This document shows, in pieces, positions 8,701 to 55,951 of a DNA stretch of 64,000 nt. This stretch comes from a virus. A model generated the notes under the pieces. The model was given only the letters and a program-made list of their open reading frames with translations, ran no database searches and had not been told where the DNA came from. The translations under genes and the position numbers were made by a program. Every line of letters starts with the position of its first letter. Positions within the stretch are counted from its first letter, which is position 1. Location of the stretch: positions 32,001 through 96,000 of the IMG/VR virus record IMGVR_UViG_3300027769_000875; one strand, given 5' to 3'.

Positions 8701-8797
8701 CATTACGTACAAATGCAGTCATTGCATCTGCTTCACTACTCAAGGCTATCACCAAGTCTTTCCAGGCTTGGTCATTTGGATTTGGACATGCACTCAT
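2702..8797 (-). CDS. Giant virion cargo / polyvalent protein with N-terminal PD-(D/E)XK nuclease domain (2031 aa)
   Basis: Motifs FGTFMHELLE, PEVTI, GRLDILMID, IYDFKT, QLDVY (about 7780-8440). Helical body; C-terminal RAQGNY...FFFRKF...LNRF region resembles large polyvalent-protein domains. Confidence 0.8.
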   Translation of the reverse strand: MSACPNPNDQAWKDLVIALSSEADAMTAFVRNGNEVPTIEQAKQILKDLRIQDKDEQLSLASDQFKLSRAVQQRQVLETMKFRANKNQKATMQKLIDMNDAYQEFLKSNIEAAKNGTAVEQTLSVSKFIGSSEFKGDPKEYEAFKLFGTFMHELLELAQEEAIAKNKTIAQVYSQEFFDKVYENYTKKNPFDIDKLSKEEMYEMAMGLVSHVNSKNASGYIILPEVTIVGTSRTGSKVIGRLDILMIDAVGKVHIYDFKTKKVKYLVERNPLTGAQEVNVDRALYGLALKEFPIGNKPGTAEKFRELPVRTTYDTWMLQLDVYENILLQSDIPVANKTISALMYQIDDDNKSYKGSVLHVFEDQDYYDQARSVNLTTDGVWFNDIDTVNKVVLDFKKAVAIEVPTGEYTEEEIRNKRPEELFDINPTDKNMQDFVTVLESVINGQIDKAYQEIQDAQNKPMRDKELEKLLKTRRDTLNNLKQIAEKLKTTNPSVLLNSTNFFNALNVMENDLETLSNISKIATQLYLGTTDSKEQSKNFEAVRIAFNKSASLATIIDFMNEVVNEAASAEGSELSVTSPVRQRLTQLSIFVESIQSDFKRIGTMNAVKVLMSPGEKVFSGVNEQKRQALIPELENLKNQLEMLKSNPKLGIYKKIKYSVFSLMNKNFKEKVKEAMGPNGDIVLAEIQRVEKRIMQIEMLLNGFEYSEEAMEKYINGITDHTSPFYPGMQNPYEGGDTILGGWMMDSAIASASNSDLAVSAFTTLLKEHKAQAEFNTMSDPQLQKFDRLLRSLQDQGFSLEDINKLTSEWITVSYEDPKTKEIKQQRRLVYVKPYSEEYENAYRGFQQNLRILNREYYEAYSLYQEKFGTDAQAEQEAKDALLAKQSERDEHKRAMIAWMLENSNLPYVDSFYNLQLKLPEDIRDKLQEIYLEQEVILYSVGRGNEVLLEESDFDRLKELDAEAKKLRMEAAERSPEYAAYLDELDNLYEFDTNDNYFRVMEKNARVRFSDSPEKLDKWYKDNTVTRPTADWYDQLNELYDQRSEIVSSDPTIKELIDRKKKIMGPYKNAGRFNPKYLTDEEISELDGIEAEIEDIIEGKKTEKSTLDKEDRKKVAEISAEIRKLVSFQLNPNYIEEFDTQYRLLQTAFNEMNNAQSNLAVARTKGVAEEIEEAENNVIFSVRRFGEVENSFRNWYEKTHYNKYQSIATGYDIKANKVPKSFNFERLPSSTVADKYMETVPNPKYYKLKRLRIGNWTLDGRKLSNSEIEALQENPEEVTELNISGRLLIERGAYNPAFIKGNDGIPLPKEIIVSDEGHFVIDPGKAPTKNINAKYLDLLRNPQMFEFYNSMMDTFFGMQKRIEGRTIGYTVPGFAASLVESIANEGFGRGFAKQYNAFVDKHLKAEGQQDMSENIYGDIGARIRMRFSNQLDEEIQSTDAVGSFMKWTTEAHMNIAMQEVAPVSKGFIEFLRLQRNQLAKDRLKGEIYVTDPQTGEKTKIDIETKLGEIDNLLKIIEFENGKYLYGITESTQEASRKMKKVVDSFFKYTSFIRIGFDVVNQTKNYTSGNVQAFLAAGGNDSDHYSKRNWLFAKGKVYGYSGFLANYLKDWGRLSDLSESTMLYRMMNPAQKDIIKYFQNSSGSRKRRMAEKLTQVGELGYMLQDKGDTEIAVTVMYAVMDNYRFEEIESIDPVTGEKTFKRDASGNIVMIPAHQAYYKDANGNLAIRKDVNYTKEDEKRVRNIIYSEMRRAQGNYAGNDQTEFESRILGKMVFFFRKFLVPQFLNRFGYLRPNWEGSEMALGYWRAFARSMRLFGVGNTMKEFLVGSNTLSKMGMSGGLKTYVIKDPKTGKVIRTEDVGDFYAKRVHHARRDAIAMTLLTIISMMLLSFVKRRDDDDEELSMLEGNAIRVIWGTKGETVSMFPVGQGSQEYVKNFTTAIPFVREFSATIKMLNHGIKYGMAMTMNGGEEADPDYDSELYQSIWKDAFYSRKSGAYEKGDAKIVKDIVDLTGIKNFRDMFDPNYRIDVLKRNQ

Positions 8798-8798
8798 T

Positions 8799-9380
8799 TT
8801 ATAAACACTTTATTTTATCAAGTATATCATCGTTATTGTAGTTGAGACCTCTCATGTTTGCAACAAGATCTCTAGCAGCTTTTGCGAATTGATCTATTCT
8901 CATTCTTTGACTGCTCTCACTATAAAGATACTCAATTACCGCAGGAGAAAGGTCAAGATTGGCCATTTCTTCATACATATTGTAAAGAGGATTGTCAGAC
9001 TCTGGGTTATCAAATAAGTATTCATCAGAATATTCTATACCAGCTCTTCTTGCATCTTCCTCTTGAATTGCTCTTGCTTCTATTTCATTGAATGCTTTTA
9101 GATACTCATTGTAATATATTGTAACCAAATCCTGTGATGGATTAAATACAACTTCTTGACCATCCATCATTTCTCTACGATACGCAACGTTGCCTTCAAA
9201 GAGTTTGTTGTTCTTGTTTACAATGCTTTCAGCAACTCTAAATGCTTGAGCCTTGCCACTTGGAAAAGCAGCATTGCTAATAAACAATGTATCAAAAGAT
9301 GTTTGCTGAATGTTCTTTGTTACATTAGGAGCAATTGCTTTTTTGATAATTGATCTTTTTATATCAGTTCTACATTTCAT
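8799..9380 (-). CDS. Hypothetical 193-aa protein with Cys at both termini (possible linker/adaptor)
   Basis: MKC...ILDKIKCL; coupled 1-2 nt from both giant neighbours. Confidence 0.8.
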   Translation of the reverse strand: MKCRTDIKRSIIKKAIAPNVTKNIQQTSFDTLFISNAAFPSGKAQAFRVAESIVNKNNKLFEGNVAYRREMMDGQEVVFNPSQDLVTIYYNEYLKAFNEIEARAIQEEDARRAGIEYSDEYLFDNPESDNPLYNMYEEMANLDLSPAVIEYLYSESSQRMRIDQFAKAARDLVANMRGLNYNNDDILDKIKCL

Positions 9381-9382
9381 AG

Positions 9383-12300
9383 TTAACAGTTATTTTCATC
9401 TGTTGGGTCAATACTTGGTCTATTATTAGGTTTAATAATAGTCCTGTTCTGAGCAGCAAGAGCAAGTATGGCTTTTCTATTGCCATCTTCTTCACCCCAC
9501 ATCATCCTCTTATTTGTCGTCAAAGATATGATAGTATTTTTAGATGTCACTATGTATTCTGAATCTTTATAGTCTACTATCTTAGCAACCATATCAAGTG
9601 CTTTCATGTTTGCTTCAGCCACTGATATTTTAGATTTTACACCTTCTAACAATGGATTGTAAAGTTGCCATGTACCATTTGCGTTTTGCTGAGTAACAAT
9701 GTAAGTTGTGCCCTTATAATTAACATACCTTCCTCGTTGTATCTCAGGAACTTTTGGCGCATTTTCAGGTTGTGGATTCTTGCCTAATATGTTCATAAGA
9801 GCTGCAAGAGAATTTTCACCAGCATCTATCTGACTCTGGCTTACACCAGTTTCTTGATCTATACCTTCTTGTAAAACACCTGGATCATTCTTTTTTAATT
9901 GTGATTCAGAAATACCATCTGTGATAACAACATTCTCAGTAGGTTTTTTAGTCGCATCTGGTTTTTTGTTTTCATCCTTTACATCAGTCCCAACTTTTTC
10001 ACCAGCATTAGTGTCAACAATATTTGTGTTGAATACAATTGATTCTTTCTTATCTATGTATCGCTTGTATGTTTCAGCATTCTCTGTACTAAACGCAATT
10101 GGACTAAGTGCCTCTGAAGCATACTGTGATGGTATCACTTTATACTTGGCAAATGTTCCTATGTTTGAGAAGGTTGTTGTACCCATGATTGAGTCATACA
10201 AGTTTGATCCAATTGATTTTCCTTTAGAAGCATTGTTATCAATACCTTGTAGCACATACGTATTTAAACCAATGCGCATAATGCTTGGAAAAACAAATTC
10301 TACAGAATCAGGTTCTGTTATATCCTTTTGTATTCCAAACATTTTACCAAGTGTTATGTTGGCTTTTTGATTCTTACCAGAAAGATTGATGGTAAACTCT
10401 GAACCTAATGCATCAGCAATATTTATACGATCTACTTTTGCAAGATCTGTACCTTCAGGAAACTGTAAATCTAATGCATCAAGTACATAGTTCATTGCCT
10501 TGATTTTAGCTTCAGGTAAAGTTTCTTTTGTTGCCTCTTGCTTTTCATCTACGAATGCTTTTACAATAGGTTTTGAGAAATTTGGTTTCTTAGAATTTAT
10601 TGTAAACAATACACCCCTTGTATTATTCTTGTCTCTAAACTTAGGTATCTTTCTGTTATTGTTTTCTGATGCTGCAGCATACGCAATTTGATCAAACATC
10701 TCATCAAAGAATTTAACAACACCATCTTGTGATTTTTCACCAGTGTAGTTTAGCATGAATGATTTGAAATCTTCTTCAAAGTTTTTACTCTGAACAACTG
10801 ACTCAATACCTTGTATGAACTCATCAATATAACCTGATAGTGGAACTTTTAATTCTGCTGGCATATACGCCATAAATGATCCTTCTTTATACTGCAATCC
10901 TGTACGTACAAGGTCATGATAGAATAGACTTTTAACAAATTGTCTCTCATCTGTACCTCCTTGGTTGTATAAAAATGCAATATCGTCAGCTATCTTGCTT
11001 GCGTAATCACCTTTGACTTTGGCTTTGCTTATCATTGATATAAATCTTTCGCTTATACCTTGATAGCTTTTACCATTAAACAACACTGTTGCTGTGTTCT
11101 TTGATTCAGATTGACGTAGTAACTTCAAGAACTCATTGTCAGGATATTTTTCTCTAAATCTTTCTACCTGTGTAAACAAGTCATTCGTAAACCAGTACTC
11201 AGGAGTAAATGTTCTAAGTATTACCTCATCATCGTTATCTAACAATGATTGAATTGCTGGATTATTTACTTTTCTAGAACCAGGATAAGTCATTTTAAAC
11301 TTATTCAATGCCAAGAAGCTTGTAAGTGTATTTGAAATAGTCTTTGGATCTTCAAAGTATCCTTTAAACGCTGTTGTTATAGGCATAAAGAATGGCGTTC
11401 TCTCTAAGAATATTTTAGAGAACTGTTCATTAGCATCATCTAATGCCTCACTAAGAATTGACCATACTTGATTATCTCCAAATAAATCAGCTGCAGACTC
11501 TTTATCAAAAAGCTTTTCTTCATCTTTTAACTCATTGATGTTATCGCGCATTTTATCAAATGCTACAAGACTTGGATTAAGACGCTTGAATAAGTTGGTA
11601 ATACTTGCAGCTCTATTGATGGCCCATGTTTGTTGTGCTTGCTTTGCATAGTATAAAAGAAGAACAATCTTCATTTCGTTTTCAGTCAATGGTTGATTAT
11701 TATCATCATATACCATTTCAAAACCAATTGCAGATGGTGTAAGTTGATTGTTTTTCAAAGCATACAAACTCAGCTTTTTAGGTGCAAAACCAATCTTAAT
11801 CTTAAGTGGGTTATCTAAAATAACCATATCCTTAAATGACTTTGGTGTAACAACACCAGCAGCTTTCAATCTATTAAGAGCTGACTCATCTTTTTCAATA
11901 AGATCAGCAAGTTGTTCTTTTACAGCAGAGTTGTAAAACTTGTAATCTTGTTCTAAGTCTTCTGACAACGCAAACTGTGATTGCTGTACTGCTAATGCAG
12001 CCTGGCGCACTTCAGGTAAGAAGTTAAATGCTAACGCAAACTCAGGATCCAAACCAACACCAATCATTGCAAGTGTGGTACTTGCGTTTACTTCATTCAT
12101 TTGAAGAGCTGCAGGAATAGGATCTTTAGCACCATCAGCAAACATACCAAGTATATTACCAATGATTGCAATAACTCTTTGATCCTTTTCATTCATTTGA
12201 CCAAACGTATCCTTCAGTACAATTCTTCCTTCAATTGTTTGATAAGCCCATACAATTGCTTTATCAGATAGTTTTAGGTTATACTGACTAGCCAATGACA

Positions 12301-15300
12301 AAAACTTATTCATTACTGCTGTACGCCCAATACCATCCTTGTTCATGTTGTTTTCTACCTTAGACTCAATCATGTTGGTAGGAGTAAACAAGTTGGATTT
12401 TTTTGTAATCGCCTTGAGATCAATTCCAAATGCAGAAAGAATATCTTTAAACTCTTGTGTTGATGATCTTTGATTTATGTACAAGAAATTAAACACAGCT
12501 TCATTTGCGAGTATTTGCAAGCTTGCAGCAAGGTTTTTGTTCTGGTACTTTGGTGAAACCATTTCTGAAAAACCTATTTGAGAAATGTACTGTGATACAT
12601 TACTTGGTATACCATACTTAGCAAGTGTATCCATGATTGCTTGGTACTCAAATACAGAGTCCAAGTAGTTAAGCAATTCTTTTGTTTGACGTTGTTTTCT
12701 TACAGACTCTTTTCTTATTGCTTTAAGATCGCCTAGCTCTTTACCATAAACATTGCGTGTCTTTGCAAGTTCTCTATTTTCTGGATTTTGCTCAGCTATC
12801 TCTTTTGCTTTTACATATAACTCTTTAGATTCTTTTGTAAGTTCAAACATGTAGTTTGTAAAATCTAACTGTTCTGTATATTTAGATTTCAAAGCTACTT
12901 GTGTAAATGCACCTCTGAATTTTTCATCACCAAATCCTAATGCTTCCATTACTTCAAATAATGGACCCTCACCTGGCATTTCTATTGTACCTTCATTTAT
13001 AAGTTCTTGCTTACGTTGTTTTATAGCTGGTGCAATGTCCTCATGCTTAGCCATGTAATGCATAAACTCAATAAACTCACCAACTTCAGGGTTTTCATAT
13101 ATACTGTAATCACCATACAAAGAATAGTTTCCTTTACCATTCTTGTAGTATGACATCATTCTACCAAACAATGAGTCAATGTCAAAGTCAGATCCTGCTA
13201 ACAAGTGTACAAAATGTGGTACAATAATGTTATTCATTTTAGAAGAATCAGTAAAGTCAACGACCTTGAGAGCAATCATTGAACGTTTATCTTCTGTAGG
13301 AATACGTACACCAAACATTCTGGTTAAGTTATCCATGTAGAATTGTTCTTGCTGTGCATTCTCAAAGAATGGTTTAGGTACAATTGCTTCTACATAATAT
13401 AACTTTGTTCCATCTGCTTGTTCTTCAACACTAATACCAAGTGGTCTTGAGCTGTATCTTGCAGTGTTTTCAAATTCTTTTGGATTTTCTCCAATCTCTT
13501 GTGTAGTTACTACTCTATTTTCTTGAGTATCAAACAACACATTATAACCAAATGAACTTTCATGGAAGTTTTTAAATCCTGAAACCTTTTCATCTGTTAC
13601 GTTTTTACTATACTGAGCTAACAAGTAGTACTCAAGAGTAGATCGTATTAGACTAAGATTTGGACTAAATACTGGTGTACCATCTGGCTTAACAGCAAAC
13701 ATGTCAAGAATATTCTTTGGCGCATTCTGCTGTTGTAAACTATCACGTATCATTGTGAAAAGTTTACCCATATCAAAGTCATCACCTTTTCTGAGAACTT
13801 GAGTAAAGTATAATAACCTTGCTTTTGTTGCCTGGCGTAATGATAATTGATAATCATTAAGTGCAGTTTTTATATTCTGCATTGCAATGATGTCACCTTC
13901 AGAAACTGTTCTTCCTGTTTTACGTACTTCTGTTTCAATTATCTTTCTGAATTCTTCCTCATTAATGTTTGCAGGAAGTAAAAGTTTTGATTGCACAGAG
14001 TGCTTAGCTTTATCTTTAACACCACTTGTTTCAACCTGCAAATACTTTGCACTATTTGGAACATCAAGTGCTGCCATTTTTAAATTAATATACCCATCTT
14101 CTGTTCTTTCTGAGAAGAATACATCTATTGGCAGTAACGTAGCGTTTTTAGATGCAGTAGTATCCATCAACTGATCAATTTGGAAAAGCTCCATTGAGTT
14201 GAGAATATTATGCATCATCTCGCGATGTGGCATTGCTCTATAGTAAGAGTGTATGTCTCTATACAAATTCTGAATCTCAATATCAATTTTGGTTATTTGA
14301 TTTTTAGCATCTGGCATTTCTGCTGCTAATTCACGATCCTTACGTAAATCATAAACCGCCATATATAGTCCATGCAACTCATCATACACACGGGCAGTTG
14401 CATCATCAATTGACTCATCATTTTGAGGTGCAATATCAAGAATGCTTACATCTGTTCTGTCAATATAACTTTCAGATTGTTTGTGATAAACATTACGATC
14501 TGCTGTGATTGTTTTCTTGGCATTATTGACAATCTTCATTGACTCAAGGTATCGCGCTTCATCTTGCGTAATTGCTCTATAATGTTTAGCAATTAGAATG
14601 TACAAACCACGATCATCTAATCTACCAAGTGTATCATGCATATCAATTTGGTGCATCAATGATGAAATACTTTGACCATCAAAGATTTCACGCATCATGT
14701 CTGCCCATTTTACCACACGTCCATTAACATTTTCAACTGTGTTACCTTTTGCTTTTTCAAATCCTTCTAGTAACTCCTCACGAATATTATTATTAGGAAT
14801 TGTAAAGTCACTTTCAATTTGCTCTGCATTAAAGTATGGGCCATACTGAGGAAACTCTTCATGAATAAATGCTGTAATTGTATTCATGTATGCAACCTTG
14901 TGTGTTCCATTTTTCATATTAGAACCACTTGCCACAATTTTCTTTAAACGTTTGACATAGTCTTGAGCATTCTTTACGTTCAACGCCATGTCACCATCCA
15001 TTAACTGATTTAAATGAAGACCATTTCTCCAGTTATTCATGAACATGTCAAACAGCAATTTTTCAATTGGTTCAATTGCTGAAGCTTCATTAGTACCATG
15101 TGGCGTTCCATATGCATCTGTAAGTGAACGCTTGGCAAATCCTTCTTTTACAGATGTTGGTAGCATACTTGAAGAATAATACTCAGCTGGTAACAATGCT
15201 GCAACAGCTGGTCTTATTTCAGCCTTTTTATCTTTTTCATTAATAGGAAGTTTCTCTATTAAACCAAGTGTTTCAAGTTTTTCCAAGTATGTTTGGAACT

Positions 15301-18300
15301 CTTTCTGTGCGTAGTCATTTAATGCTGAAAGTAAGTCCTGCATGTCTATCTCTTCAAACGCAACTTGCTTTTTAGCCAAGTCAATTAAATCATCTCTGAG
15401 AGATTGATTATTTGGATCATCAAAGAAATCTTCCAGTATATTAAATCTATAAGCTCTTAAACTTGAGTCATCAACATTTGCTGTTACATTATCATCTTGT
15501 AGTACAGCATTGTATTTATTAATAAGGTCATTGCTTTTACCATTTTCAAAGTTAGCCTTCAAGTCAAGTCTACGATTCCATTCGCGAGATGCTCTATTAT
15601 ATTCTTGATTTACAATAGCAACAAGATCCTCAACTATTTTAAGATACTTTCCTTGATAAAGTAATTGACCTTTGTCATTGGTTTGTTTTGCTTCTTTTGA
15701 AGTAAATGGTTGGTATAATGCAGATATCAAAAAGTTTGTAGACGTAGCCTCTAACTGATGGAATGACCTTAAGTATGTAGATATTTCATTACCACCCTTA
15801 TCACGTAATACCTTTTTATCCATAAATGCAAGTACCTGCAGCATGTGCAAAGATCTTTCATCAACAGATTTAAAAGTTTGTCCTTTTTTAGTGACATCAC
15901 CAATACGTTGTTGTACACCACCAAACATTGCTACAGTAAAGTTGTCCAAAAACAATTGCATTTTTACACTATCTTCATTAGCTTCTCCTCTTAAGATTGG
16001 ACCAAGCAATGCATTGTCTTCAATGAATGCTCTTAATGTATTTTCAAAGTATGGATCATCAGCTAATGCTTCTTCTAATGTCATTGTATTCAAACGCTGA
16101 CCAAGCAATAATAATGGATTGTACTTTGTAAAACGATAGATTGGCTTACCTTCAGCATTTTTTACAACACTTGGTATTTCTGTTGGATCATACTTTACAA
16201 CATACGCTGATGCTTTTTTAAGAATAGTAAGCAATCGCTTTGCATCTTTGTTTCTAGACTTCTCATCATCAAGTATATTTCTGATTCCACTGTTTGGTTT
16301 ACCACTTTCAAGATAAGATGCATCTAAAACAATCTTCAAACTTCTGAAAAAGTCTTTTTCCAAATACTGCTCCTGACGTACAAAGTCCTCATTGACATCA
16401 TAAAACTTTTGCAGTCTCATATCAACATCAAGATTAATGTTGTTTTCAACTTTGTTTATGCCCATCAATGACAATCTTACTAATGATTTTGGAACTCTCA
16501 TTCCAATTGTAATCATAGCATTATGAATCTCATTGGTAAGTTTTTCTAACTTCATTGTTTGACCAACCATTCCATCAAGAATATCTGGTGCAGTCATAAA
16601 GTTTGTGGCAAAGTTTTTAAGATACTGAACTGCCTGTTTAAACTCATCATTATTTGCATCTGTTGAATGCTTCTTGATGAATCCTGAAATAATATCGTTA
16701 CGCTTTTTGGTAACGTCTGCATCAACAACTTTATCAAATACCCTAAAGTTTACAGACTCAGAACGTAATAATTCTTCTCCAGATGTAATATCCTCCATGT
16801 TAATTTTACGTGGAGTGGATACATTGAACATTACATTATTTAATTCAACACCATGTAGTACTTCTACAATAAGATTTAGTAATTGCTTATTGGTTTGTGC
16901 AACACCATTTGAATCTGCTTTTGTACGTGTTTGTATTTCATTAAAGATTACTTGAAGATCTTTTCCTACTTGAGCATATCCATCCTCAATCATTTGTTCT
17001 GACATAACGCCAATACTATCAATGATATTTTTTGGATTAATACCAGCTGTTATTTTTAAAAGTGTAGGAAACAATACTTGTCCATCAATCATGCGTGGAA
17101 AGTATATTCCATTCTTTTCATCAAACTGATCACTTCTTAGAGTAGAAAAGAATCTTCTTATTTGAGCTACATAAGAATCCATACGATTGTATTCTGCCAT
17201 TCCAGAATCAAAGTCATTGCTTTCTAATTCTTCTTGTGCAGATACACGCTCATCATCTTGTACCTCATTTGCATTATCGCCATTAAATGTATCTTCTACT
17301 TCTTCTGAGTCTAATGTATACTCATCATTTTCTCTTGCTATCTGTACACTGTTTGCTTTAGTATATTTATCTTTTACTAATCTTCTCAATGTTTCAAAAG
17401 AATACTGACCCATTGTGTTGTCTATAACTTCGCCATTGATCAATCTTATCTTGTTTAAGTTAGCCTTGTTGTCATACTTTGAATCACCAGTAAGATTGAT
17501 ATCATTAACGTTCAAGCCCTTCATTCTTGCACCAAGAATAAATCTGTAAGATGATATTAATGGGCCATAGTCCTTTTCAATCTGCTCTCTTGCTGCAGGA
17601 TTTTGTGCAACAAGTTTTTCCATGCTATAAACTTCATTTAGAATTTTATCTGCAGCACGTTGGAATTTAGTTTCAAAAGTATCTGACTGAACTGCATCCT
17701 GGAATATAACACCAACCATCATGTCAATCAGTTGGTTTTGTTCAGAAACGCTGAGTGTAGAGTTTTTCTTTTCTACATTGCCTTGCTCATTGTTGTTGTA
17801 TTTTACAAGACCATCAATAAGTTCATATGCAACTTGACCATTGAACACGTCAGATTTAATTGTTGCTGTTTTGTAATATCCAGTTTTTACACGGTCATAC
17901 ACAGCTTCTATCTGAGTTCTGTTTTTGACAAAAAAGTTGAGCAACTTTTTAAGCATCTCAAAGAATCTTTGTAATGCTGTTTTAGGTTTTGCTTTTCTTT
18001 CTTTGCTCATGTATTTTTGGAAACCATCAGCAAGTATCTCTTCTGCTACTAGTTCAGCAAGTGTATCGTAGTTTGTAATAGATAGATTTCTTACTCTTGC
18101 AAACTCTTTTAATGATAATGATGTAAAGTTGTCTGCATGCTTTGGATCATCCATTATTTGTTTAACCAATGCTTTGCGTTCTGTATCTGTTAAAAGATAT
18201 CTGAAGACACCGTGAAATGCTTCATGGTAGATTGTACCCTTACCAGTGATTGTATCATTTAGGTAAATGATTCTATCTTTAAACATCCCTAGAACTGTAC

Positions 18301-21300
18301 CATCAATTTTGGAAAGATTAATTAAATCTTTTAATGAACTTGTATCAAGTCCAAACTGAGGTAGGTTTTCTGCAAGCCATTGTGATTCTGTCAAGATATC
18401 TTGCTCAGTAGCAACTTCAATACCTGTACCTTCAGAAATAGAGAATGGAACATCATCGTCAGTAAAGTCAATTACATCATTGTCTTCATCATTCTGATTT
18501 TCGTCTGTAACATCTTTTTCTGTTTCAGCAGTATCATTTAAGACGATTGGCGTACTACTAACATTATCAGGTGTAATTTTTACAGGAGCATTTTCTTTTT
18601 CTGCAACATCATCCACAATAGCTTTATCTTCAAGTGTCTGGTCAAGATTTTCAGAAGTTTGATCAGCCATTGATACATTAACAGGAGATTTTGCAACAAG
18701 ATTAAATGATCTACGACCAGTAGACTCATACACTTTTACATTTTTCATGGATCTGTTGTATGAACTTCTAGCATCACTTTGAGTAGACAATGGTGAGTTG
18801 ATTTTCAAAACACGAACACCTTCGTCATTTTCTCTTGAGAATAAATCTTCTATTTGGAAATTTGTATATGGAGCAAAGTCTTCATTAAGTGCATCTAAAA
18901 ATTCACCATACACATTATCAGGATTGGCCTTGATGTATTTTGTAACAGCATCTAGTACACTTACAGTAAACTTTTCTTGTGCAATGGATACTTGTTGTGC
19001 TAGGTTTTTAACATTTAGAGATGCTGTTGGTAGTTTAGCTAATTCAAATACTGTTGTATAGAATTGTACCAAATCATCTGCCTTGGATAAATCTAATTTT
19101 GATAACGCAATGTTTTCTGATTTTACAATACCAACAAGAGACCCTTGCGTAAGAGCTTTTGATAATGTCATAATATCCTTTTCAGGAATTATAAAGTTAT
19201 ACGCATACTTAGAATTATCAGACTTAAGAATGATATTACCATAGCGAGAATCTTTTGCACCTCTGTATGGACGTATTTCTACTTGTAATGCTCTTCCATT
19301 TTTAATAGTAGATGTTGCAAAGTCAATCGTCAACTGTGGTTCTGCTTTACCTGGCATTCTTACAGGATCAAACTGATACATTGTCTTCTGCATTGCTCTT
19401 ATGTTTGCAGATTTATTTGCATTAGTTGGATCAATAATTGTTGCCATAGTTGTAATAAACTTGGCAAAGAACTCAGGGTTTTGCAATTGATATACCTGAT
19501 CAACAATAGCATAAGAGATTTCACCAGTAGATGGAAACTTCAATACAAAATGCATTGTCTTTTGAACACGTGTTAATGGTTGATTTGTTTTCATCAACTC
19601 AGTCAATCGTGAATCCTCTTCTTGAAATAATGTTTTTACCTTTTCATTTAAGTTAAGAACATCATCAATATACGTTTTCTCAGTAACAAGTTTAACTTCT
19701 CCATCTGGCATTGTTACTTTGATTCTTTCATTGGCTGCTAAAAAGGTAGAACTAACATAGTTAATGGTAGCAAACTTTGGATCAAATGTTTTGTAAAAGT
19801 AAAAAGGTAACTTACGTTCCTCTTCAGATACTGCATCTCCCTTTGCATCAATCTGCACTACTGTTACTGTCTGACTAAATTGAGGATTCTTTTCTACAAG
19901 CTCTTTAAGAGTTGTCTTTACAGGTTCTGAAGAACGCGTGTTTGTAAAGTCATACATCTGTAAGAAGTCATCAGTAACATCAACTGATGTCCCTACATTA
20001 AATGCTTCTTCAATCTTAGCTGCTATCTTGTCTTTAAATTCTTGATAGAGTTTTTGAGAAGCAACAATGGAAAGAATGTCAGAATTATTTAAGTCTTGTA
20101 TATTATTCCCTGCTCTTTTAATTGACATGTCCTGAAGCATCTTTAAATGTCCAGGATTTGTAAGATCAAGTTTTTCTGTAGAGTTATCGCTTGACACAAA
20201 TACAAAGTTGTCCATTGAGTATATGTAGAACTTTTTACCTGTTGCAAGTATCTCACCCACTAATGCAAAATCTTGTTCACTTGCTTTTGGTCTTGACACG
20301 GTAAGAACTTTACCATTTGGATTAGACTGAAGATATGCAACCTGAGTTGAGTTCTCAAAAGTTTCATAATCTCTTTTTGCAAGGCCTGCATATTCTGTTT
20401 CTGTAGCTGCAAGTTCTTTTAATCTTTGAACACGCATGTCACCAAAGTCACTCAGCTTAACAGCAGTGATTTTAACACCAGAAGATGGTGATGCCATTTT
20501 ATTTAATTCAGTAAGAACAGTCACATGATCTTCTGGATTGACAGCATCTATTGTTAATCCAGATGCAAAGAAGTCTTCTTTGAATACTTGCTTACCATCA
20601 TTTGAGTCAGACCAGTCAGCAGGTCTTGCTGATTTTTTTGCTATGATTGTTGCAGGATCAATTTCTGTAAGTGTTCCATCTTTCTCAATTTTATTAAGCA
20701 TGCCATCAAATTCAATAGCTTCAATCATAGAACCATCCTTCAATGTGACAAGGACGTTATCTAACTGAACAGCATCTGCAACAGAATCAATAGGAATATA
20801 ACTTGACTTAGGTTGTAAACTGTCAATGTAATCATCTATTGCAGAATACAACACTTGCTTGTATGATTCATCTGCTTTAGACAAATCGCCAATTACTCCT
20901 TTTAAGTCACCACGTATTTGGTCAATAGCATCTGTTCTATCTTCTATTGTGTCAAACTTATAAGTAGAAACATAATTTTTCAACAACTGAAGAACACCTC
21001 CAGCTTTTGTCAAATCTTGAAGAGTGATTAACGATTGCTTACTTAACTCCTCAATGACTTTTGATATGCCATCATAAGTTTGAGGTCTTGGTTTTTTTAA
21101 ATCAAAAAGCGTAAAAGCATTTGATAGATACTTTGCTGTATCATCAAACATGGAGTCTGTTCCAAGATTTATAATATCTAATCCTTTACCAATGTTGTAT
21201 TTCTCTTGATTTAAACCAGAAAGCCCATTGTATATATGGGCCATATTATGTAGAGCTAATTTCTTTTGCTCCTCTGTTAAATTTGCACTTAGAATGAATC

Positions 21301-21397
21301 TTGCTGCGTTATCATAGTTTGTATATACAGTTGGACTTAATCTAATTAAATTCTCTACTACAGGTATATATTGTTCAGTAGTTAAAACACATCCCAT
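9383..21397 (-). CDS. Virion-packaged DNA-dependent RNA polymerase polyprotein (phi14:2 gp66-like) with zincin domain (4004 aa)
   Basis: Catalytic AGSDFDIDSL (DFDID at 13175-13189) preceded by GVRIPTEDKRSM; downstream FADGAKDP; zincin TIYHEAFH (18212-18226) plus AEEILADGF. Confidence 0.9.
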   Translation of the reverse strand: MGCVLTTEQYIPVVENLIRLSPTVYTNYDNAARFILSANLTEEQKKLALHNMAHIYNGLSGLNQEKYNIGKGLDIINLGTDSMFDDTAKYLSNAFTLFDLKKPRPQTYDGISKVIEELSKQSLITLQDLTKAGGVLQLLKNYVSTYKFDTIEDRTDAIDQIRGDLKGVIGDLSKADESYKQVLYSAIDDYIDSLQPKSSYIPIDSVADAVQLDNVLVTLKDGSMIEAIEFDGMLNKIEKDGTLTEIDPATIIAKKSARPADWSDSNDGKQVFKEDFFASGLTIDAVNPEDHVTVLTELNKMASPSSGVKITAVKLSDFGDMRVQRLKELAATETEYAGLAKRDYETFENSTQVAYLQSNPNGKVLTVSRPKASEQDFALVGEILATGKKFYIYSMDNFVFVSSDNSTEKLDLTNPGHLKMLQDMSIKRAGNNIQDLNNSDILSIVASQKLYQEFKDKIAAKIEEAFNVGTSVDVTDDFLQMYDFTNTRSSEPVKTTLKELVEKNPQFSQTVTVVQIDAKGDAVSEEERKLPFYFYKTFDPKFATINYVSSTFLAANERIKVTMPDGEVKLVTEKTYIDDVLNLNEKVKTLFQEEDSRLTELMKTNQPLTRVQKTMHFVLKFPSTGEISYAIVDQVYQLQNPEFFAKFITTMATIIDPTNANKSANIRAMQKTMYQFDPVRMPGKAEPQLTIDFATSTIKNGRALQVEIRPYRGAKDSRYGNIILKSDNSKYAYNFIIPEKDIMTLSKALTQGSLVGIVKSENIALSKLDLSKADDLVQFYTTVFELAKLPTASLNVKNLAQQVSIAQEKFTVSVLDAVTKYIKANPDNVYGEFLDALNEDFAPYTNFQIEDLFSRENDEGVRVLKINSPLSTQSDARSSYNRSMKNVKVYESTGRRSFNLVAKSPVNVSMADQTSENLDQTLEDKAIVDDVAEKENAPVKITPDNVSSTPIVLNDTAETEKDVTDENQNDEDNDVIDFTDDDVPFSISEGTGIEVATEQDILTESQWLAENLPQFGLDTSSLKDLINLSKIDGTVLGMFKDRIIYLNDTITGKGTIYHEAFHGVFRYLLTDTERKALVKQIMDDPKHADNFTSLSLKEFARVRNLSITNYDTLAELVAEEILADGFQKYMSKERKAKPKTALQRFFEMLKKLLNFFVKNRTQIEAVYDRVKTGYYKTATIKSDVFNGQVAYELIDGLVKYNNNEQGNVEKKNSTLSVSEQNQLIDMMVGVIFQDAVQSDTFETKFQRAADKILNEVYSMEKLVAQNPAAREQIEKDYGPLISSYRFILGARMKGLNVNDINLTGDSKYDNKANLNKIRLINGEVIDNTMGQYSFETLRRLVKDKYTKANSVQIARENDEYTLDSEEVEDTFNGDNANEVQDDERVSAQEELESNDFDSGMAEYNRMDSYVAQIRRFFSTLRSDQFDEKNGIYFPRMIDGQVLFPTLLKITAGINPKNIIDSIGVMSEQMIEDGYAQVGKDLQVIFNEIQTRTKADSNGVAQTNKQLLNLIVEVLHGVELNNVMFNVSTPRKINMEDITSGEELLRSESVNFRVFDKVVDADVTKKRNDIISGFIKKHSTDANNDEFKQAVQYLKNFATNFMTAPDILDGMVGQTMKLEKLTNEIHNAMITIGMRVPKSLVRLSLMGINKVENNINLDVDMRLQKFYDVNEDFVRQEQYLEKDFFRSLKIVLDASYLESGKPNSGIRNILDDEKSRNKDAKRLLTILKKASAYVVKYDPTEIPSVVKNAEGKPIYRFTKYNPLLLLGQRLNTMTLEEALADDPYFENTLRAFIEDNALLGPILRGEANEDSVKMQLFLDNFTVAMFGGVQQRIGDVTKKGQTFKSVDERSLHMLQVLAFMDKKVLRDKGGNEISTYLRSFHQLEATSTNFLISALYQPFTSKEAKQTNDKGQLLYQGKYLKIVEDLVAIVNQEYNRASREWNRRLDLKANFENGKSNDLINKYNAVLQDDNVTANVDDSSLRAYRFNILEDFFDDPNNQSLRDDLIDLAKKQVAFEEIDMQDLLSALNDYAQKEFQTYLEKLETLGLIEKLPINEKDKKAEIRPAVAALLPAEYYSSSMLPTSVKEGFAKRSLTDAYGTPHGTNEASAIEPIEKLLFDMFMNNWRNGLHLNQLMDGDMALNVKNAQDYVKRLKKIVASGSNMKNGTHKVAYMNTITAFIHEEFPQYGPYFNAEQIESDFTIPNNNIREELLEGFEKAKGNTVENVNGRVVKWADMMREIFDGQSISSLMHQIDMHDTLGRLDDRGLYILIAKHYRAITQDEARYLESMKIVNNAKKTITADRNVYHKQSESYIDRTDVSILDIAPQNDESIDDATARVYDELHGLYMAVYDLRKDRELAAEMPDAKNQITKIDIEIQNLYRDIHSYYRAMPHREMMHNILNSMELFQIDQLMDTTASKNATLLPIDVFFSERTEDGYINLKMAALDVPNSAKYLQVETSGVKDKAKHSVQSKLLLPANINEEEFRKIIETEVRKTGRTVSEGDIIAMQNIKTALNDYQLSLRQATKARLLYFTQVLRKGDDFDMGKLFTMIRDSLQQQNAPKNILDMFAVKPDGTPVFSPNLSLIRSTLEYYLLAQYSKNVTDEKVSGFKNFHESSFGYNVLFDTQENRVVTTQEIGENPKEFENTARYSSRPLGISVEEQADGTKLYYVEAIVPKPFFENAQQEQFYMDNLTRMFGVRIPTEDKRSMIALKVVDFTDSSKMNNIIVPHFVHLLAGSDFDIDSLFGRMMSYYKNGKGNYSLYGDYSIYENPEVGEFIEFMHYMAKHEDIAPAIKQRKQELINEGTIEMPGEGPLFEVMEALGFGDEKFRGAFTQVALKSKYTEQLDFTNYMFELTKESKELYVKAKEIAEQNPENRELAKTRNVYGKELGDLKAIRKESVRKQRQTKELLNYLDSVFEYQAIMDTLAKYGIPSNVSQYISQIGFSEMVSPKYQNKNLAASLQILANEAVFNFLYINQRSSTQEFKDILSAFGIDLKAITKKSNLFTPTNMIESKVENNMNKDGIGRTAVMNKFLSLASQYNLKLSDKAIVWAYQTIEGRIVLKDTFGQMNEKDQRVIAIIGNILGMFADGAKDPIPAALQMNEVNASTTLAMIGVGLDPEFALAFNFLPEVRQAALAVQQSQFALSEDLEQDYKFYNSAVKEQLADLIEKDESALNRLKAAGVVTPKSFKDMVILDNPLKIKIGFAPKKLSLYALKNNQLTPSAIGFEMVYDDNNQPLTENEMKIVLLLYYAKQAQQTWAINRAASITNLFKRLNPSLVAFDKMRDNINELKDEEKLFDKESAADLFGDNQVWSILSEALDDANEQFSKIFLERTPFFMPITTAFKGYFEDPKTISNTLTSFLALNKFKMTYPGSRKVNNPAIQSLLDNDDEVILRTFTPEYWFTNDLFTQVERFREKYPDNEFLKLLRQSESKNTATVLFNGKSYQGISERFISMISKAKVKGDYASKIADDIAFLYNQGGTDERQFVKSLFYHDLVRTGLQYKEGSFMAYMPAELKVPLSGYIDEFIQGIESVVQSKNFEEDFKSFMLNYTGEKSQDGVVKFFDEMFDQIAYAAASENNNRKIPKFRDKNNTRGVLFTINSKKPNFSKPIVKAFVDEKQEATKETLPEAKIKAMNYVLDALDLQFPEGTDLAKVDRINIADALGSEFTINLSGKNQKANITLGKMFGIQKDITEPDSVEFVFPSIMRIGLNTYVLQGIDNNASKGKSIGSNLYDSIMGTTTFSNIGTFAKYKVIPSQYASEALSPIAFSTENAETYKRYIDKKESIVFNTNIVDTNAGEKVGTDVKDENKKPDATKKPTENVVITDGISESQLKKNDPGVLQEGIDQETGVSQSQIDAGENSLAALMNILGKNPQPENAPKVPEIQRGRYVNYKGTTYIVTQQNANGTWQLYNPLLEGVKSKISVAEANMKALDMVAKIVDYKDSEYIVTSKNTIISLTTNKRMMWGEEDGNRKAILALAAQNRTIIKPNNRPSIDPTDENNC

Positions 21398-21409
21398 TTC
21401 TTTACGTAT

Positions 21410-24400
21410 TTATTTAAAACAAGAGTTTATCTTTCTCAGTTGATCTAAAATGGTCTCTTCAGAAACCTCACCCTCACTAACAAATTTACCAATTTTTTCT
21501 GAGATTTTGGCTAACTCTTTTTTGGTATCTTCTACAGTTTGAGTTGCTTTTTGTATTGCGTCATCATATTCAGCAATAAGTGTATCTAACTTTTCTACCA
21601 ATGCAGGGTTTCCTGCAAGATTTCTTTGACTAACAAGATCTTTTCTTTCTTTCTGATAGTCTGGTATAATAGCAGTTTCATAATCGTTAATGACAAACTC
21701 CAATGAATCAATGCGACTTTGTGTTCTTTTGTCTATCACAGGTTTGTTTGTGGTAATTGATTTTTGAATTGCATCTTTAATCTCAGCCAAAACTCTTTCT
21801 GTTTCAGCAACTGTAGTACGTTCAGGATATTTAATATCTGCTACAAGTTTTGCAAACGCAGTCTCATCAAAACCTTCTGGAACTTTAACATTAACTATTG
21901 TACGTCCACCACCTCTGCCAAACATGTCTTGACCCTCAATGATTACACCAAGCACTCCATTGTTGATGTAGTAATTGGTTTTACCATATCTTCTTAATTT
22001 AGATAGTTCTTCAGATTCATTGCCCATTTTTGTAGAGGCATCATCGCTGATAATACTTTCCATACCATTTTTTGTGGTAGATTGTACATTCAAATTTAAA
22101 ACTACAGGAGCTGTTGTTTGAATTCCACTTTTTTCTTTAGCATATAACTTTTTTAGTTTATCTATTACCTCTTCTTTAGTATTACCATAAACAGTCTCTA
22201 TATTTTCAAATATGCTTGCAGCATTATTTGGATCCCAATTTGGTCCAAAGTAGGTCCCTTCACCCCTAAACGCTCTATTAACTTCGTCAATGCTATATTG
22301 CATTCTCCTTTGTACATCATCTGTTGGTGCTTGTGCAGACATACTTTCAAGTCTGTCAAATAAATCTTGAACTGATTGCATAGGTAATGCAGGACCTCCA
22401 ACAAATCCTGAAGTTGTATCTTCAAAAAGATTTAATTGTTCTTGCTCTTGGCGTTCTGCCTTTTTTCTTTTTTGTTTGATTTTATCAAGAGGTACACCTG
22501 TTAGTATAGACTCTTTTATATCATCAAGATTACGTTTACCTTGTGGTATTTTGTAATACTCTTCTAAAGTTTGAATAGCAGTTTCATTTGCTTTATTGTA
22601 AGCACGTAAAGATATTTGTCCTCTACGCACCATTTGATCTACTTTATAAGTTGGATCTTCAAATGCTGTCAAGTCGCCTAGGTGCAATCTTGTCCAATCA
22701 ATATCTGTTCTTGCATTGTTAAGTTCATTTGCAAGATCATTTGCTTTTTCTTCAGATTCAATTTTCTCATCAGTAAGAGTTATTCCATTTCTAGAAACAA
22801 CGTCATAACCTTCTTCTGGATCTCCTTCAACAACAAATGGTTCTTGCTCATTCTCTGCTTTGTTTGTACCATCTTTACCAGTGCCATTAAGTTTTTCAAG
22901 TAACTCAAGTTGCGCTTGTGCTGCTGCATCAGCTGCATCTATTGTTGTGTTATCAAAGTTATCTAATGGATCTTTGGTTTCATCAAGCGTTCCTTCTGGT
23001 TGCTCAAATACTTGAGGAATTTCTTCGTCTACTGGTTCTTGCACAGGAGCATTTTCCTCTTCTGCTCTCAAACGTTCATCTTCTATAATAGACTGAATCT
23101 CAGATATTTCAGCAGCCTTTGCAGTCATAATTTCAACTTCACGTGGAGTTAAATCAATACCTTCAAGATCACGTCTTGCAATACTTTGCAATGTTATATC
23201 ATCAACTTCTTGATTCTGTTTGAAGCTTTCATACACCGTGTCTGATATTACCTCAATAGGTGTATTATTAAAATGCTCTACAACATCATCATTAGTAATA
23301 AGATTTCGCTCCATTGCCAAATTCAACACCTCATTCTCTGGCATTGCGTCAAGTTGTGCCATTTCAAATTCGCCAGTATTAACAAGAGCCTCTTTTGCTA
23401 AAGTTACTTTTGAACCATCCTGCACACCTCCATTTGCATTTTCATCAAAGTTTAAAGTTGATACAATAGAATCTACTTCATCTTTGTTAGCATTATATAC
23501 CTCACTTTGTCTATCAGACAATTGAACCTTTTGAGCAATTCTACGTGCAATAAGTGCAAGTGTATATCTTGGAACCTTTTTAGTTTTTTGAAACTCTTCA
23601 TACTGCATGTCGTTGATATCACCTGTAATGTCTTGAGTAGCATATTCATCAAGCATTTCAGCAATCTTGTCAGAAATTAAATCATTAAGTTTCTTAATGT
23701 TTTCTTGGGCAAACTTTGCGTTTTGCAAACCTGTGTTCTCATCAATACTAACTAGAACAAGATTCTTATAGTAGTCACTACTTGTAACAGCAGTAGATAG
23801 TTCCTCATATAGTTTAGCAGCAAGTTGTATTTTTTCTACAATATCTTCTAAATCTGAGTTGGAAGCTACACTTAAGATTATTTCTCGTAATCTATTATTC
23901 AGGTTATCTACAAACTCAAGTATTTCATATTTGAATCTACCATCTTGGATGTTTGTAAGTGTTTGGCGATAATACTCTGGATTAAACAACAAGTCCATTG
24001 CTTGTGTGTAGTCCTTAGAATCTTGCTCCAAACGCATGAAATCTACAACCTTATCAAGTGCATCACGTAACGATTGTTCTGATAACTGGTCTGATATGCC
24101 ATATTCTTTATTACGCAGATTGATAAATTCTCTAAATGTTTCTGCTATATCCTTATGATCTAAAGAGTAAACAGTTGTATTCTCATCAATAAGATTTCCA
24201 TCTTCATCGTAGTATTTGATAGAATTAATTGGAACTCCAACAAACGTATTATAGATTTTTTCTTTTTGATCTACTACCTCTCCTGTTTCAGTATCTTGTC
24301 TCATCGCAATAGTATCACGATCATCCCAAAATTCCATCCACTTATCATATAATTCTAATAAGCGTTTCTTATCTTTTATTTTTCCCTGTACTTGTTCTTT

Positions 24401-34990: not shown

Positions 34991-35022
34991 CAAATGTAGG
35001 AATTCTAATCTAAAAATTCAAC
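34991..35022 (-). promoter_or_regulatory. Bacteroidota primary-sigma-type promoter (-33 GTTG, 20-nt spacer, -7 TACATTTG)
   Basis: Matches the established TTTG-N19-21-TAnnTTTG consensus with one mismatch. Confidence 0.45.
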
Positions 35023-54761: not shown

Positions 54762-54793
54762 ATCTATTTTTTAATTTATTTACAATCATTTAT

Positions 54794-55237
54794 TTACACT
54801 TCAGTATATGTTATTTCCATAGTCAGATTTTCACATGGACATCCAAGTTTTGAAAATACATCTGGTGCTATTACTAGTTTTACTCGCCTGTCCTCATTAT
54901 CAGTATATTCTCCCCAACTTTGATTTGCATTTAAATCATCTACTAACTGAGTAATGTTATTTAAAGGCGCAGATGACGCATAATATTCTATTGGTTCTCC
55001 ACTACAATAAAAAGTTACTAAATTAACAGGATAAAATACTATAGCATTTGAATATATTATACAAGGTTCAGATGGAGGTTCGCATATTACCTCACACCAA
55101 TTCAATCCATCCCAATATTTTACAACACATATTTGTGGCTTTAACTCTTGCCAGCCAAAAATAGTTTTAATACGCACATCACAATTGCATATATCTACCC
55201 AATTAATACCATCAAATATTTTATACGCGTTAGTCAT
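54794..55237 (-). CDS. Small fibre-associated protein (147 aa)
   Basis: Start moved to the ATG 2 nt after the upstream TAA; repeated K.(F/W)DG.NW motifs. Confidence 0.7.
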   Translation of the reverse strand: MTNAYKIFDGINWVDICNCDVRIKTIFGWQELKPQICVVKYWDGLNWCEVICEPPSEPCIIYSNAIVFYPVNLVTFYCSGEPIEYYASSAPLNNITQLVDDLNANQSWGEYTDNEDRRVKLVIAPDVFSKLGCPCENLTMEITYTEV

Positions 55238-55239
55238 AG

Positions 55240-55941
55240 TTACAATGGTGTGCAAGGTTGAATCCATATATCACCTGGTCTAATTGTATTATTTGTTCCA
55301 ATATAATTTACACCAAATCCTTCAATAGATCCATATATACTATCAAAATTAGCTTGTGTTGGTTCTGTTGTCTGTACAAATACAGCTACTCCTCTTCCTG
55401 ATTTACCATCAGTTCCTGAATTACCAGGTAATCCTTGTGGTCCTGGAGGTCCTATTGGTCCAGGGCCACCAGCAGGTCCAGCAGATCCAGGTGCACCCGT
55501 ACACCCATTGCATGCAAAATCAGTACTTATAATAGTATCAGATATGCCATCAAAATAATCTATTTGAACACCACCACATGGACAATGTATATCTCCTAAA
55601 GGTATCGTATATACTTTTACATAATTACCATTGATTCCTGCTGATCCATTTGCGCCTCTTAAACCTGGAGGGCCAGGTAATAATTGTATAGCACATATTT
55701 GGTCTATAACAAGTTGGAACAATTCTGAGAAATCAGTTGGTGGACAAGATATATCATTAAAACATGAAATGTCATATTGTGTAGGATCTAACATTACAAG
55801 TGTATCGCAAAACTTAGTAGCAAGTTTATACAACACATCTGTTATCGTATCACCATTACACAGTTTCAAACATGGAATATCTGGACCTTCCCAGATTACA
55901 CAGTTTGAAGAAGTTTTCATACATCCATCTTTGCTTCTCAT
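55240..55941 (-). CDS. Collagen-like fibre protein (233 aa)
   Basis: Gly-X-Y tracts (GPPGLRGANGSAGING; GAPGSAGPAGGPGPIGPPGPQGLPGNSGTDGKSGRG); Cys-rich N-module; C-terminal VQTTEP..GDIW. Confidence 0.85.
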   Translation of the reverse strand: MRSKDGCMKTSSNCVIWEGPDIPCLKLCNGDTITDVLYKLATKFCDTLVMLDPTQYDISCFNDISCPPTDFSELFQLVIDQICAIQLLPGPPGLRGANGSAGINGNYVKVYTIPLGDIHCPCGGVQIDYFDGISDTIISTDFACNGCTGAPGSAGPAGGPGPIGPPGPQGLPGNSGTDGKSGRGVAVFVQTTEPTQANFDSIYGSIEGFGVNYIGTNNTIRPGDIWIQPCTPL

Positions 55942-55951
55942 ATCTAATTTT

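Follow-up and report, generated by a model that had tools for sequence, protein, structure and literature searches.

Four consecutive open reading frames (ORFs) in a 64,000-nucleotide (nt) stretch of viral DNA (IMG/VR record IMGVR_UViG_3300027769_000875, positions 32,001 to 96,000 of that record; this whole stretch is hereafter called the window) encode proteins whose only cysteines (Cys) lie at their facing ends, and a comparison with related genomes indicates that the number of such Cys pairs follows the number of breaks between the genes. The four ORFs correspond, as judged from motifs and homology, to the virion RNA-polymerase block of crAss-type phages. We regard it as moderately probable that the terminal Cys pairs are end-to-end disulfides, which would join the four proteins in the particle as a linear chain. 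The coordinates of the proteins were taken from the ORF list, and their Cys were counted with a script and located in the translations. In gene order, the proteins are as follows.

21410–27208, minus strand: 1932-amino-acid (aa) protein (215 kDa), first link; its sole Cys is residue 1930 (codon 21419–21421), 2 residues short of the C-terminus, and it has no N-terminal Cys
9383–21397, minus strand: 4004-aa protein (453 kDa), second link; Cys3 (codon 21389–21391) and Cys4004, the final residue (codon 9386–9388), with no internal Cys
8799–9380, minus strand: 193-aa adaptor (22 kDa), third link; Cys3 (codon 9372–9374) and Cys192 (codon 8805–8807), with no internal Cys
2702–8797, minus strand: 2031-aa protein (233 kDa), last link; its sole Cys is residue 4 (codon 8786–8788, in MSACPNPN...), and it has no C-terminal Cys

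The block thus contains 6 Cys in 8,160 residues, none of them internal, and the order along it is C-terminal only, both ends, both ends, and N-terminal only. The original prediction, made from the letters of the window, had claimed that there are only six Cys, all near a terminus, and that they are arranged head to tail; the recount returned the same number, the six codons it had named all encode Cys, and the order agrees with the count and is kept in relatives. Elsewhere in the 118,973-bp record, the ORFs contain 388 Cys in 28,647 residues (1.35%), a rate that predicts about 110 Cys for the four proteins (binomial probability of ≤ 6, ~1e-39). Given six Cys, the probability that all of them fall inside the 9 terminal positions of each protein is ~7e-15. 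Intramolecular cyclization from N- to C-terminus was considered and was ruled out, because the first and last proteins hold one Cys each.

To place the record, we compared it with protein families and with individual phages. The PHROG families of the major head protein, the portal and TerL matched the record with E values of 2e-33, 1e-88 and 3e-68, respectively, and a PHROG family-B DNA polymerase was also matched. The TerL is 25% identical to Crassvirales TerL over ~90% of its length, and the best match of the major capsid protein was in the cultured Leptolyngbya phage Lbo-JY46 (28.7% over 99%), an unclassified Caudoviricetes cyanophage. From these matches, we interpret the record as a distant crAss-like phage, the likeness to Crassvirales being distant. 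Three features within the block bear on the identity of its proteins.

13175–13189, minus strand: DFDID, residues 2737–2741 of the 4004-aa protein, found by motif search and translation and invariant in the alignment labelled A4
18212–18226, minus strand: HEAFH (a zincin-type HExxH), residues 1058–1062 of the 4004-aa protein, found in the same way and invariant in the same alignment
7925–8380, minus strand: PD-(D/E)XK nuclease-superfamily domain, residues 140–291 of the 2031-aa protein (Pfam PF12705, PDDEXK_1; E = 4.9e-07, 30.4 bits against a cut-off of 22)

DFDxD is described as the catalytic motif of crAss-type RNA polymerases (10.1101/2020.03.07.982082). BLASTP searches with the four proteins were run against a small database of fetched phages. 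Residues 2542–2755 of the 4004-aa protein matched crAss002 gp33 (E = 1e-14) and residues 2653–2744 matched crAss001 gp50 (E = 2e-09), and DFDID sits within both of these matches; a separate stretch, residues 2938–3139, matched the phi14:2 polymerase g066 (E = 1.6e-04). Residues 1004–1178 matched crAss001 gp47 (E = 7e-09), which also has HEAFH, at residue 2157, within the matched stretch. The C-terminal part of the 2031-aa protein matched phi14:2 g065 (E = 5.5e-05) and the 2748-aa protein of Lbo-JY46 (E = 8e-14), and is also homologous to the C-terminal region of crAss002 gp33, whereas the 1932-aa protein matched the 1552-aa protein of Lbo-JY46 (E = 2e-11). Identity across phages was low, at 23–30% over short stretches. 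No PHROG family was found for any of the four proteins, Pfam returned only PDDEXK_1 in the 2031-aa protein among them, phmmer against PDB sequences gave no match at E ≤ 1 for the 4004-, 1932- and 2031-aa proteins, and a tblastn search of the phage collection with the 1932-aa protein found nothing.

Based on these results, we interpret the four ORFs as the crAss-type virion RNA-polymerase (transcription) block in the form that this phage has, the polymerase being in mid-chain, and the 4004-aa protein as a virion RNA polymerase fused to a zincin-motif region. The original prediction had described the four as ejection proteins and had noted that crAss-like phages eject large cargo, including an RNA polymerase; the two motifs together with the BLASTP matches place it with homologues of crAss001 virion cargo. 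In crAss001, gp45, gp46, gp47, gp49 and gp50 were identified as virion cargo by mass spectrometry, and gp47 (263 kDa), gp49 (155 kDa) and gp50 (277 kDa) were assigned to a featureless “cargo zone” of the capsid where they lack ordered density, and are described as needing partial unfolding to exit (PMC10172136). The phi14:2 polymerase and its two neighbors are reported to be present in virions, and these proteins are fused in some phages (10.1101/2020.03.07.982082). In the 2031-aa protein, Cys4 is invariant (alignment A3). At the other end of this protein, the tail ...YRID(I/V)LKRNQ (2702–2731, minus strand) is near-identical in most of the clade despite an overall identity of 38–45%, and is replaced by different ends in four genomes (G014, G015, G006 and G008); possibly, this tail anchors the free end of the chain.

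The conservation of the Cys pairs was analyzed in a clade set of 17 loci, comprising 16 contigs recovered by a degenerate ...KIKCL* DNA pattern and L004, which is the window's own DNA. The pattern gave 19 contigs, from which G009, G011 and the 9.8-kb L008 were left out of the chain reading, and three of the 16 had first been found by a search with the 193-aa protein. Ten chains were complete (the window, G001, G003, G004, G005, G007, G008, G010, G012 and G014) and contained 25 junctions; seven partial loci contributed 11 more. Cys were present on both sides of all 36 junctions. The first protein always had a C-terminal Cys only and the last always an N-terminal Cys only, and the N-side and C-side counts were equal in all 10 complete chains. 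Orthologues of the 1932-aa protein in G003, G004, G007, G008, G010, G012 and G014 have kept the sole C-terminal Cys.

The complete chains differ in how many breaks they contain, and the Cys differ with them. Three pairs and an adaptor were found in the window, G005 and G012 (adaptors of 193–195 aa), G008 (326 aa) and G003 (644 aa), whereas G001, G004, G007, G010 and G014 have two pairs and no separate adaptor. By BLASTP and reading, the giant protein of G004 (3877 aa) tracks the window's 4004-aa protein to approximately residue 3987 and then passes straight into the C-terminal module of the adaptor. The window instead has ...PSIDPTDENNC, a stop, MKC..., the N-terminal module, an acidic linker and the C-terminal module; the G004 giant lacks both the ...PSIDPTDENNC tail and the MKC... 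N-terminal module. Thus, both Cys of the 4004/193-aa junction exist only where the break exists, and fusion removes both together. The check that the original prediction had proposed, namely conservation and pairing of the terminal Cys in relatives with split or fused genes, therefore came out in its favor: the pair is present when the genes are split and absent when they are fused. The breaks themselves lie at different places. HEAFH is upstream of a break in crAss001 (in gp47) and downstream of a break in the window (in the 4004-aa polymerase protein). The break points are not homologous between lineages, yet each has a Cys pair, and the number of pairs follows the number of gene breaks.

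The Cys pairing also recurs at 17 junctions in 12 named genomes, including that of Anabaena phage A-4L (cyanopodophage A4). The arrangements in the named phages are as follows.

phi14:2: the sole Cys of g067 is its last residue; g066 has only Cys 3 and 2179; the sole Cys of g065 is residue 3
crAss001: the sole Cys of gp47 is residue 2339 of 2341; gp50 has Cys 5, 1334 and 2404 of 2412; the sole Cys of gp49 is residue 5
DAC15: gp078, gp076 and gp077 have the same order of Cys
phi17:2: the Cys of gp039 is its last residue; gp038 has Cys 4 and 516 of 517; gp036 has Cys 3
cr55_1, cr118_1 and cr4_1: a single giant protein that carries a Cys 3 residues short of its end, followed by one with a Cys at 3–5
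Lbo-JY46: the sole Cys of the 1552-aa protein is its last residue; that of the 2748-aa protein is residue 4
A-4L: gp27 has Cys 1715 of 1717 and gp26 has Cys 5, each the sole Cys of its protein (1717 and 1114 aa)

Once two introns and one start codon had been corrected, the N-side and C-side counts were equal in all 12 named phages. First, in crAss002 gp33 (L050, MN917146, 9270–9375), the first Cys as annotated is residue 35. Residues 33–35 read M-S-C and are followed by TPSNP, which is similar to the conserved start of the last protein of the chain, and a hairpin-like repeat lies upstream; Met33 is probably the true start, and the annotated start 32 codons too far upstream. Second, the 290-nt gap between gp054 and gp053 of cr108_1 (L057, 14088–14406) matches a group I intron (80 bits, E = 1e-20), and the two are probably a single spliced gene. 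Third, in cr116_1 (L055), an endonuclease-like ORF separates gp051 from gp049 and is flanked by half-matches to a group I intron (12559–12669 and 13304–13401), which score 32–35 bits against a gathering score of 50 (E ~1e-6), and the first of which begins before the annotated stop of gp051. These would probably also be one spliced gene, which would remove a surplus C-terminal Cys. An unpaired terminal Cys in the polymerase block can accordingly serve as an annotation rule that flags a wrong start or a missed intron, as three cases were resolved in this way.

The possibility that nucleotide signals at the junctions, such as translational coupling motifs containing TGT, produce the pattern as a by-product with no role at the protein level was examined with the same genomes. 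The genes of the window do abut closely, with 2–12 nt between them, and five of the six Cys codons lie ≤ 15 nt from a stop or start codon, as such signals would require. However, crAss001, DAC15 and cr116_1 encode the two partners on opposite strands, spacers range from 1 to ~30 nt across genomes, and the Cys codon may be TGT or TGC, with TGC in place of TGT in G004. Moreover, the Cys sit in modules conserved to < 30% identity, where the N-terminal Cys is the sole invariant column among hand-picked rows. We consider this artefact scarcely credible, the opposite-strand partners in three phages ruling it out.

The 193-aa adaptor is built from two modules, one at each terminus, with an acidic linker between them; the module boundaries were taken from the ranges of profile matches.

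9066–9380, minus strand: putative N-terminal clasp module, residues 1–105; the profile search also placed it at the N-terminal end of proteins between 120 and 3,761 aa long
8802–8981, minus strand: putative C-terminal clasp module, residues 134–193, ending ...ILDKIKCL; also placed at the C-terminal end of proteins between 87 and 4,199 aa long

We aligned 19 of 50 homologues of this protein with the window copy. In the resulting 20 rows, Cys192 is invariant and Cys3 is present in 19, the exception being a row without the first residues. A profile search of 1.84 billion representative sequences gave 98 matches, 96 of them new, and in 94 of the 96 a Cys lies ≤ 7 residues from the N-terminus and/or ≤ 4 from the C-terminus (both ends, 53; C-terminal end only, 22; N-terminal end only, 19; neither, 2). 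No further Cys was found in 84 of the 96, and internal Cys numbered 37 in 76,402 residues, 19 of these in one doubtful match. In alignment A2, which comprises 18 small two-module proteins, the N-terminal Cys is the sole invariant column at a mean column identity of 28%; its rows were hand-picked after the Cys had been listed, so that it is an illustration and not an independent test. The C-terminal module profile matched neither the C-terminus of the 1932-aa protein nor any terminus of Crassvirales or phage A4, and the different classes of junction are accordingly not shown to be homologous. This bears on a further claim of the original prediction, that two C-termini share an ILD(Q/K)xxK..C helix. 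The letters do match (ILDQLRKINSC in the 1932-aa protein and ILDKIKC in the 193-aa protein), but homology did not follow from the profile, and we read the likeness as a resemblance of motif only.

An AlphaFold2 model of the 193-aa protein has block-mean pLDDT values of 90–96 for residues 11–80 and low confidence for the C-terminal module. Foldseek comparison of this model with the PDB gave no matches at E ≤ 0.001, and the ESM Atlas gave no usable match. The best hit of a wide search with VIA-align was the cap domain of a trehalose-phosphatase-like protein (Z = 7.8), a score in the range of common arrangements, and the protein is therefore given no fold. A complex of residues 3880–4004 of the 4004-aa protein, the 193-aa protein and residues 1–300 of the 2031-aa protein was predicted with a score of 0.27 against a mark of 0.32, in a run without folded controls. 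Between the two modules, residues 109–124 (9009–9056, minus strand) form a conserved acidic linker motif, EDA(R/E)RAGIEY(S/T)D(E/D)YLF, which is kept in very divergent adaptors and within the genome is found in the 193-aa ORF alone; it could be a docking or cleavage site.

A single linkage of the kind we propose is already known. In the cryo-electron microscopy (cryo-EM) structure of cyanopodophage A4, gp27 Cys1715 and gp26 Cys5 form a disulfide in the virion, with the C-terminal helix of gp27 inserted in a cleft of gp26 (PNAS 2025, PMC12002296). As in the window, these are large internal or ejection proteins encoded by consecutive genes, each with a sole Cys near the facing terminus, in A4 2 residues from the C-terminus of the upstream 1717-aa protein and at position 5 of the downstream 1114-aa protein. 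The same layout, a C-side Cys upstream and an N-side Cys in the next product, is found at all three junctions of the window. There are also clear differences: A4 has one link and the window three; the term “RNA polymerase” occurs 0 times in the text of PMC12002296, whereas the window chain includes the polymerase; A4 is a 42-kb Saffermanviridae podophage and not crAss-like; and A4 gp27 and gp26 showed no similarity to the window proteins (BLASTP, E > 0.2 for all pairs; hhalign of the 2031-aa alignment A3 against gp26, probability 0.4%). Judged by analogy, then, the block works like A4 gp27–gp26 but is not a homologous member of that system. Disulfide chemistry in such particles is plausible because the A4 bond is known and because the crAss001 tail and gp57 dimer are reported to contain disulfides (PMC10172136).

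The closest counterparts by homology are crAss001 gp47/gp50/gp49 and phi14:2 gp67/gp66/gp65, which have the same order of terminal Cys. The window has four ORFs against three in these phages, the extra one being the 193-aa adaptor, and its zincin-motif region is within the 4004-aa polymerase protein rather than, as in crAss001, within gp47. Single-polyprotein forms also exist (crAss002 gp33, 4245 aa; cr55_1 gp070, 4551 aa; cr118_1 gp14, 4946 aa), and these have a peptide bond where the split forms have a Cys pair, so that fewer breaks go with fewer pairs. In a polyprotein, the link is made by translation, whereas in the window it would be made by oxidation after translation. Cleavage of the polyprotein has been suggested (10.1101/2020.03.07.982082), which is processing in the opposite direction.

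In the mechanism that we propose, successive proteins would be joined in the particle by a disulfide between the C-terminal Cys of one and the N-terminal Cys of its successor, and the 1932-, 4004-, 193- and 2031-aa products would become one linear heteropolymer of 8,160 residues (~924 kDa). With the Cys only a few residues from a terminus, each joint would be nearly linear. The removal of all other Cys would prevent mispairing and internal cross-links that hinder unfolding for passage through the tail. Such a chain would bring one full set of proteins into each capsid and let them exit in a fixed order, and the reducing cytoplasm could free the subunits. The bond in crAss-like phages, threading as a single chain and reductive release are all inferred.

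Several points weigh against this proposal. The timing of bond formation is a difficulty, since the cytoplasm in which the cargo is synthesized is reducing and gut crassviruses infect anaerobic hosts. The thioredoxin family PF00085 was not found in the genome, although the control matched in 13 of 14 genomes; the Erv/ALR oxidase family PF04777 also had no match in the genome, but its control family matched nowhere either, which makes that search uninformative. No disulfide between these proteins has been observed to date in crAss-like phages, and the A4 proteins have no detectable homology to those of the window, which leaves A4 an analogy. Reduced and non-reduced crAss001 virions were both run for mass spectrometry, and no mention of a linkage of gp47, gp49 and gp50 was found in the report, whose main text lacks the word “cysteine” (PMC10172136). 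The depletion of Cys is not absolute, with 8 internal Cys in cr116_1 gp051, 6 in cr4_1 gp26 and 4 in cr118_1 gp14, and crAss001 gp50 has its C-side Cys 8 residues away from the terminus. The 36 clade junctions represent far fewer independent events, many of the genomes being close kin, and one side of one junction in each contig had been selected for in advance by the ...KIKCL* search. Finally, Lbo-JY46 (L046, PP438436) encodes a 674-aa protein (24333–26357) with a sole Cys at position 5 (MKKKC...) and no neighbor ending in Cys.

Partnerless termini such as the last of these would be expected if each terminal Cys acted alone, by attachment to the capsid, portal, DNA or lipid or as a processing nucleophile, and if the pairing were coincidental. 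Three further proteins of the clade, each with a sole Cys ≤ 2 residues from the C-terminus, fit the same description; they are outside the chain, near tail-fibre-like genes, and have no visible partner.

G010, joined stretch 36563–37021: small sole-Cys protein
G014, 5722–6240: small sole-Cys protein
G015, 27313–27828: small sole-Cys protein

These three proteins are 152–172 aa long. Set against them are the equal N-side and C-side counts in the 10 clade chains and, after the corrections, the 12 named phages, the invariable lack of an N-terminal Cys in the first protein and of a C-terminal Cys in the last, and the joint loss of both Cys upon fusion. We consider independent action of the Cys very improbable. 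Another explanation is that the terminal Cys pairs are zinc or iron ligands, perhaps contributed by two copies of each protein, that join the proteins non-covalently. Metal ligation would give the same pairing rule, and thiolate–metal sites form readily in a reducing cytoplasm, which would remove the problem of timing. However, there are only two Cys per junction, no His, Asp or extra Cys is conserved across lineages, the flanks differ widely, and the sole solved case, A4, is a disulfide (PMC12002296). This explanation is improbable in our estimation, if less so than independent action.

The metal, independent-site and DNA-artefact explanations all fit worse than the main rival, in which the same terminal disulfides exist but do another job. 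They would lock a folded core, similar to a pre-ejectosome, around the portal axis against the pressure of the DNA; there would be no single thread, and the bonds or the complex would be undone before ejection. The A4 bond is part of a five-fold ring in which gp27 and gp26 alternate, and it is described as stabilizing the contact between helix and cleft (PMC12002296), and AlphaFold2 predicts folded, helical crAss001 gp47, gp49 and gp50, which are placed in the cargo zone of the capsid (PMC10172136). Against this, the crAss001 structure has no ordered density for these three proteins, and a purely structural role leaves unexplained both why the Cys are at the extreme termini in every lineage and why the strict C-only, both, N-only order runs along a block that is fused in some phages. 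We judge such a structural core rather unlikely, and the end-to-end chain remains our favored explanation of the Cys pairs.

T7 gp14, gp15 and gp16 and the N4 virion RNA polymerase are large proteins that are stored in the capsid and partly unfold to leave by the narrow tail ahead of or with the DNA. To our knowledge, no terminal-Cys linkage has been described in the T7 core proteins or in the N4 virion RNA polymerase. The original prediction had also suggested that such a linkage had not been described before. In this respect it needs amendment, since the single A4 gp27–gp26 disulfide has been published, where the text presents it as a local stabilizer and not as a rule tied to gene breaks (PMC12002296); a crAss-wide rule was not found in our literature search. 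The word “cysteine” is absent from the main texts of PMC10172136, 10.1101/2020.03.07.982082, PMC10136315 and PMC7886860, and “disulfide” is absent from 10.1101/2020.03.07.982082 and from the reviews PMC10136315 and PMC7886860. The search found no paper on terminal Cys in crAss cargo; the supplementary mass-spectrometry tables of PMC10172136, which were outside the search, may bear on it. What is known is therefore a single head-to-tail disulfide, and what is new, within the reach of this search, is a multi-link chain that tracks gene breaks around the crAss virion polymerase and includes a pure adaptor.

crAss-like phages are the most abundant viruses of the human gut, and how they load and inject nearly a megadalton of RNA polymerase and helper proteins is an open question. 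A covalent end-to-end link, if true, would explain a full set of proteins per capsid and would point to the order in which they leave and to what triggers their release. As a more tentative and doubtful extension, crAss-like phages and their distant kin may use a “terminal-cysteine code,” in which each gene break in a cargo polyprotein is mended by a disulfide clasp, the whole module is ejected as a single unfolded thread in fixed stoichiometry, and the cytoplasm cuts it into active subunits, with the 193-aa protein acting purely as a link. If so, reductive cutting would act as a redox-timed switch that starts the first transcription of infection, and the relatives of the 193-aa protein with inserts of up to ~550 residues would demonstrate that additional cargo can join the chain simply by acquiring the two clasps.

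Several neighboring genes of the window, all on the minus strand, also have unusual Cys contents. The 892-aa (27208–29886) and 1599-aa (37743–42542) proteins contain no Cys, and the latter has an HELGH motif at residue 1420; by analogy with the Cys-free crAss001 gp46, they may be further cargo. The 1668-aa protein (29896–34902) has six Cys in close pairs (306/319, 1314/1363 and 1585/1618), as does the 913-aa protein (35005–37746; 13/16, 198/211 and 361/373), and the spacing of these pairs looks like that of intramolecular disulfides or metal sites. Seven successive ORFs at 53028–58533 have 2.95–9.8% Cys (e.g., 24 Cys in 530 aa and 6 in 61 aa), in sharp contrast to the Cys-free cargo genes downstream; their 577-aa and 530-aa proteins, the two that were searched, had no PHROG family. 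The 1948-aa protein (44642–50488), with 36 Cys, matches the virion structural PHROGs 37948 and 15100, and its positional counterpart in Lbo-JY46 (1654 aa) has 24 Cys. Inside the structural module, a 158-aa protein (60219–60695) matches phrog_858, “starvation-inducible transcriptional regulator” (E = 1e-20).

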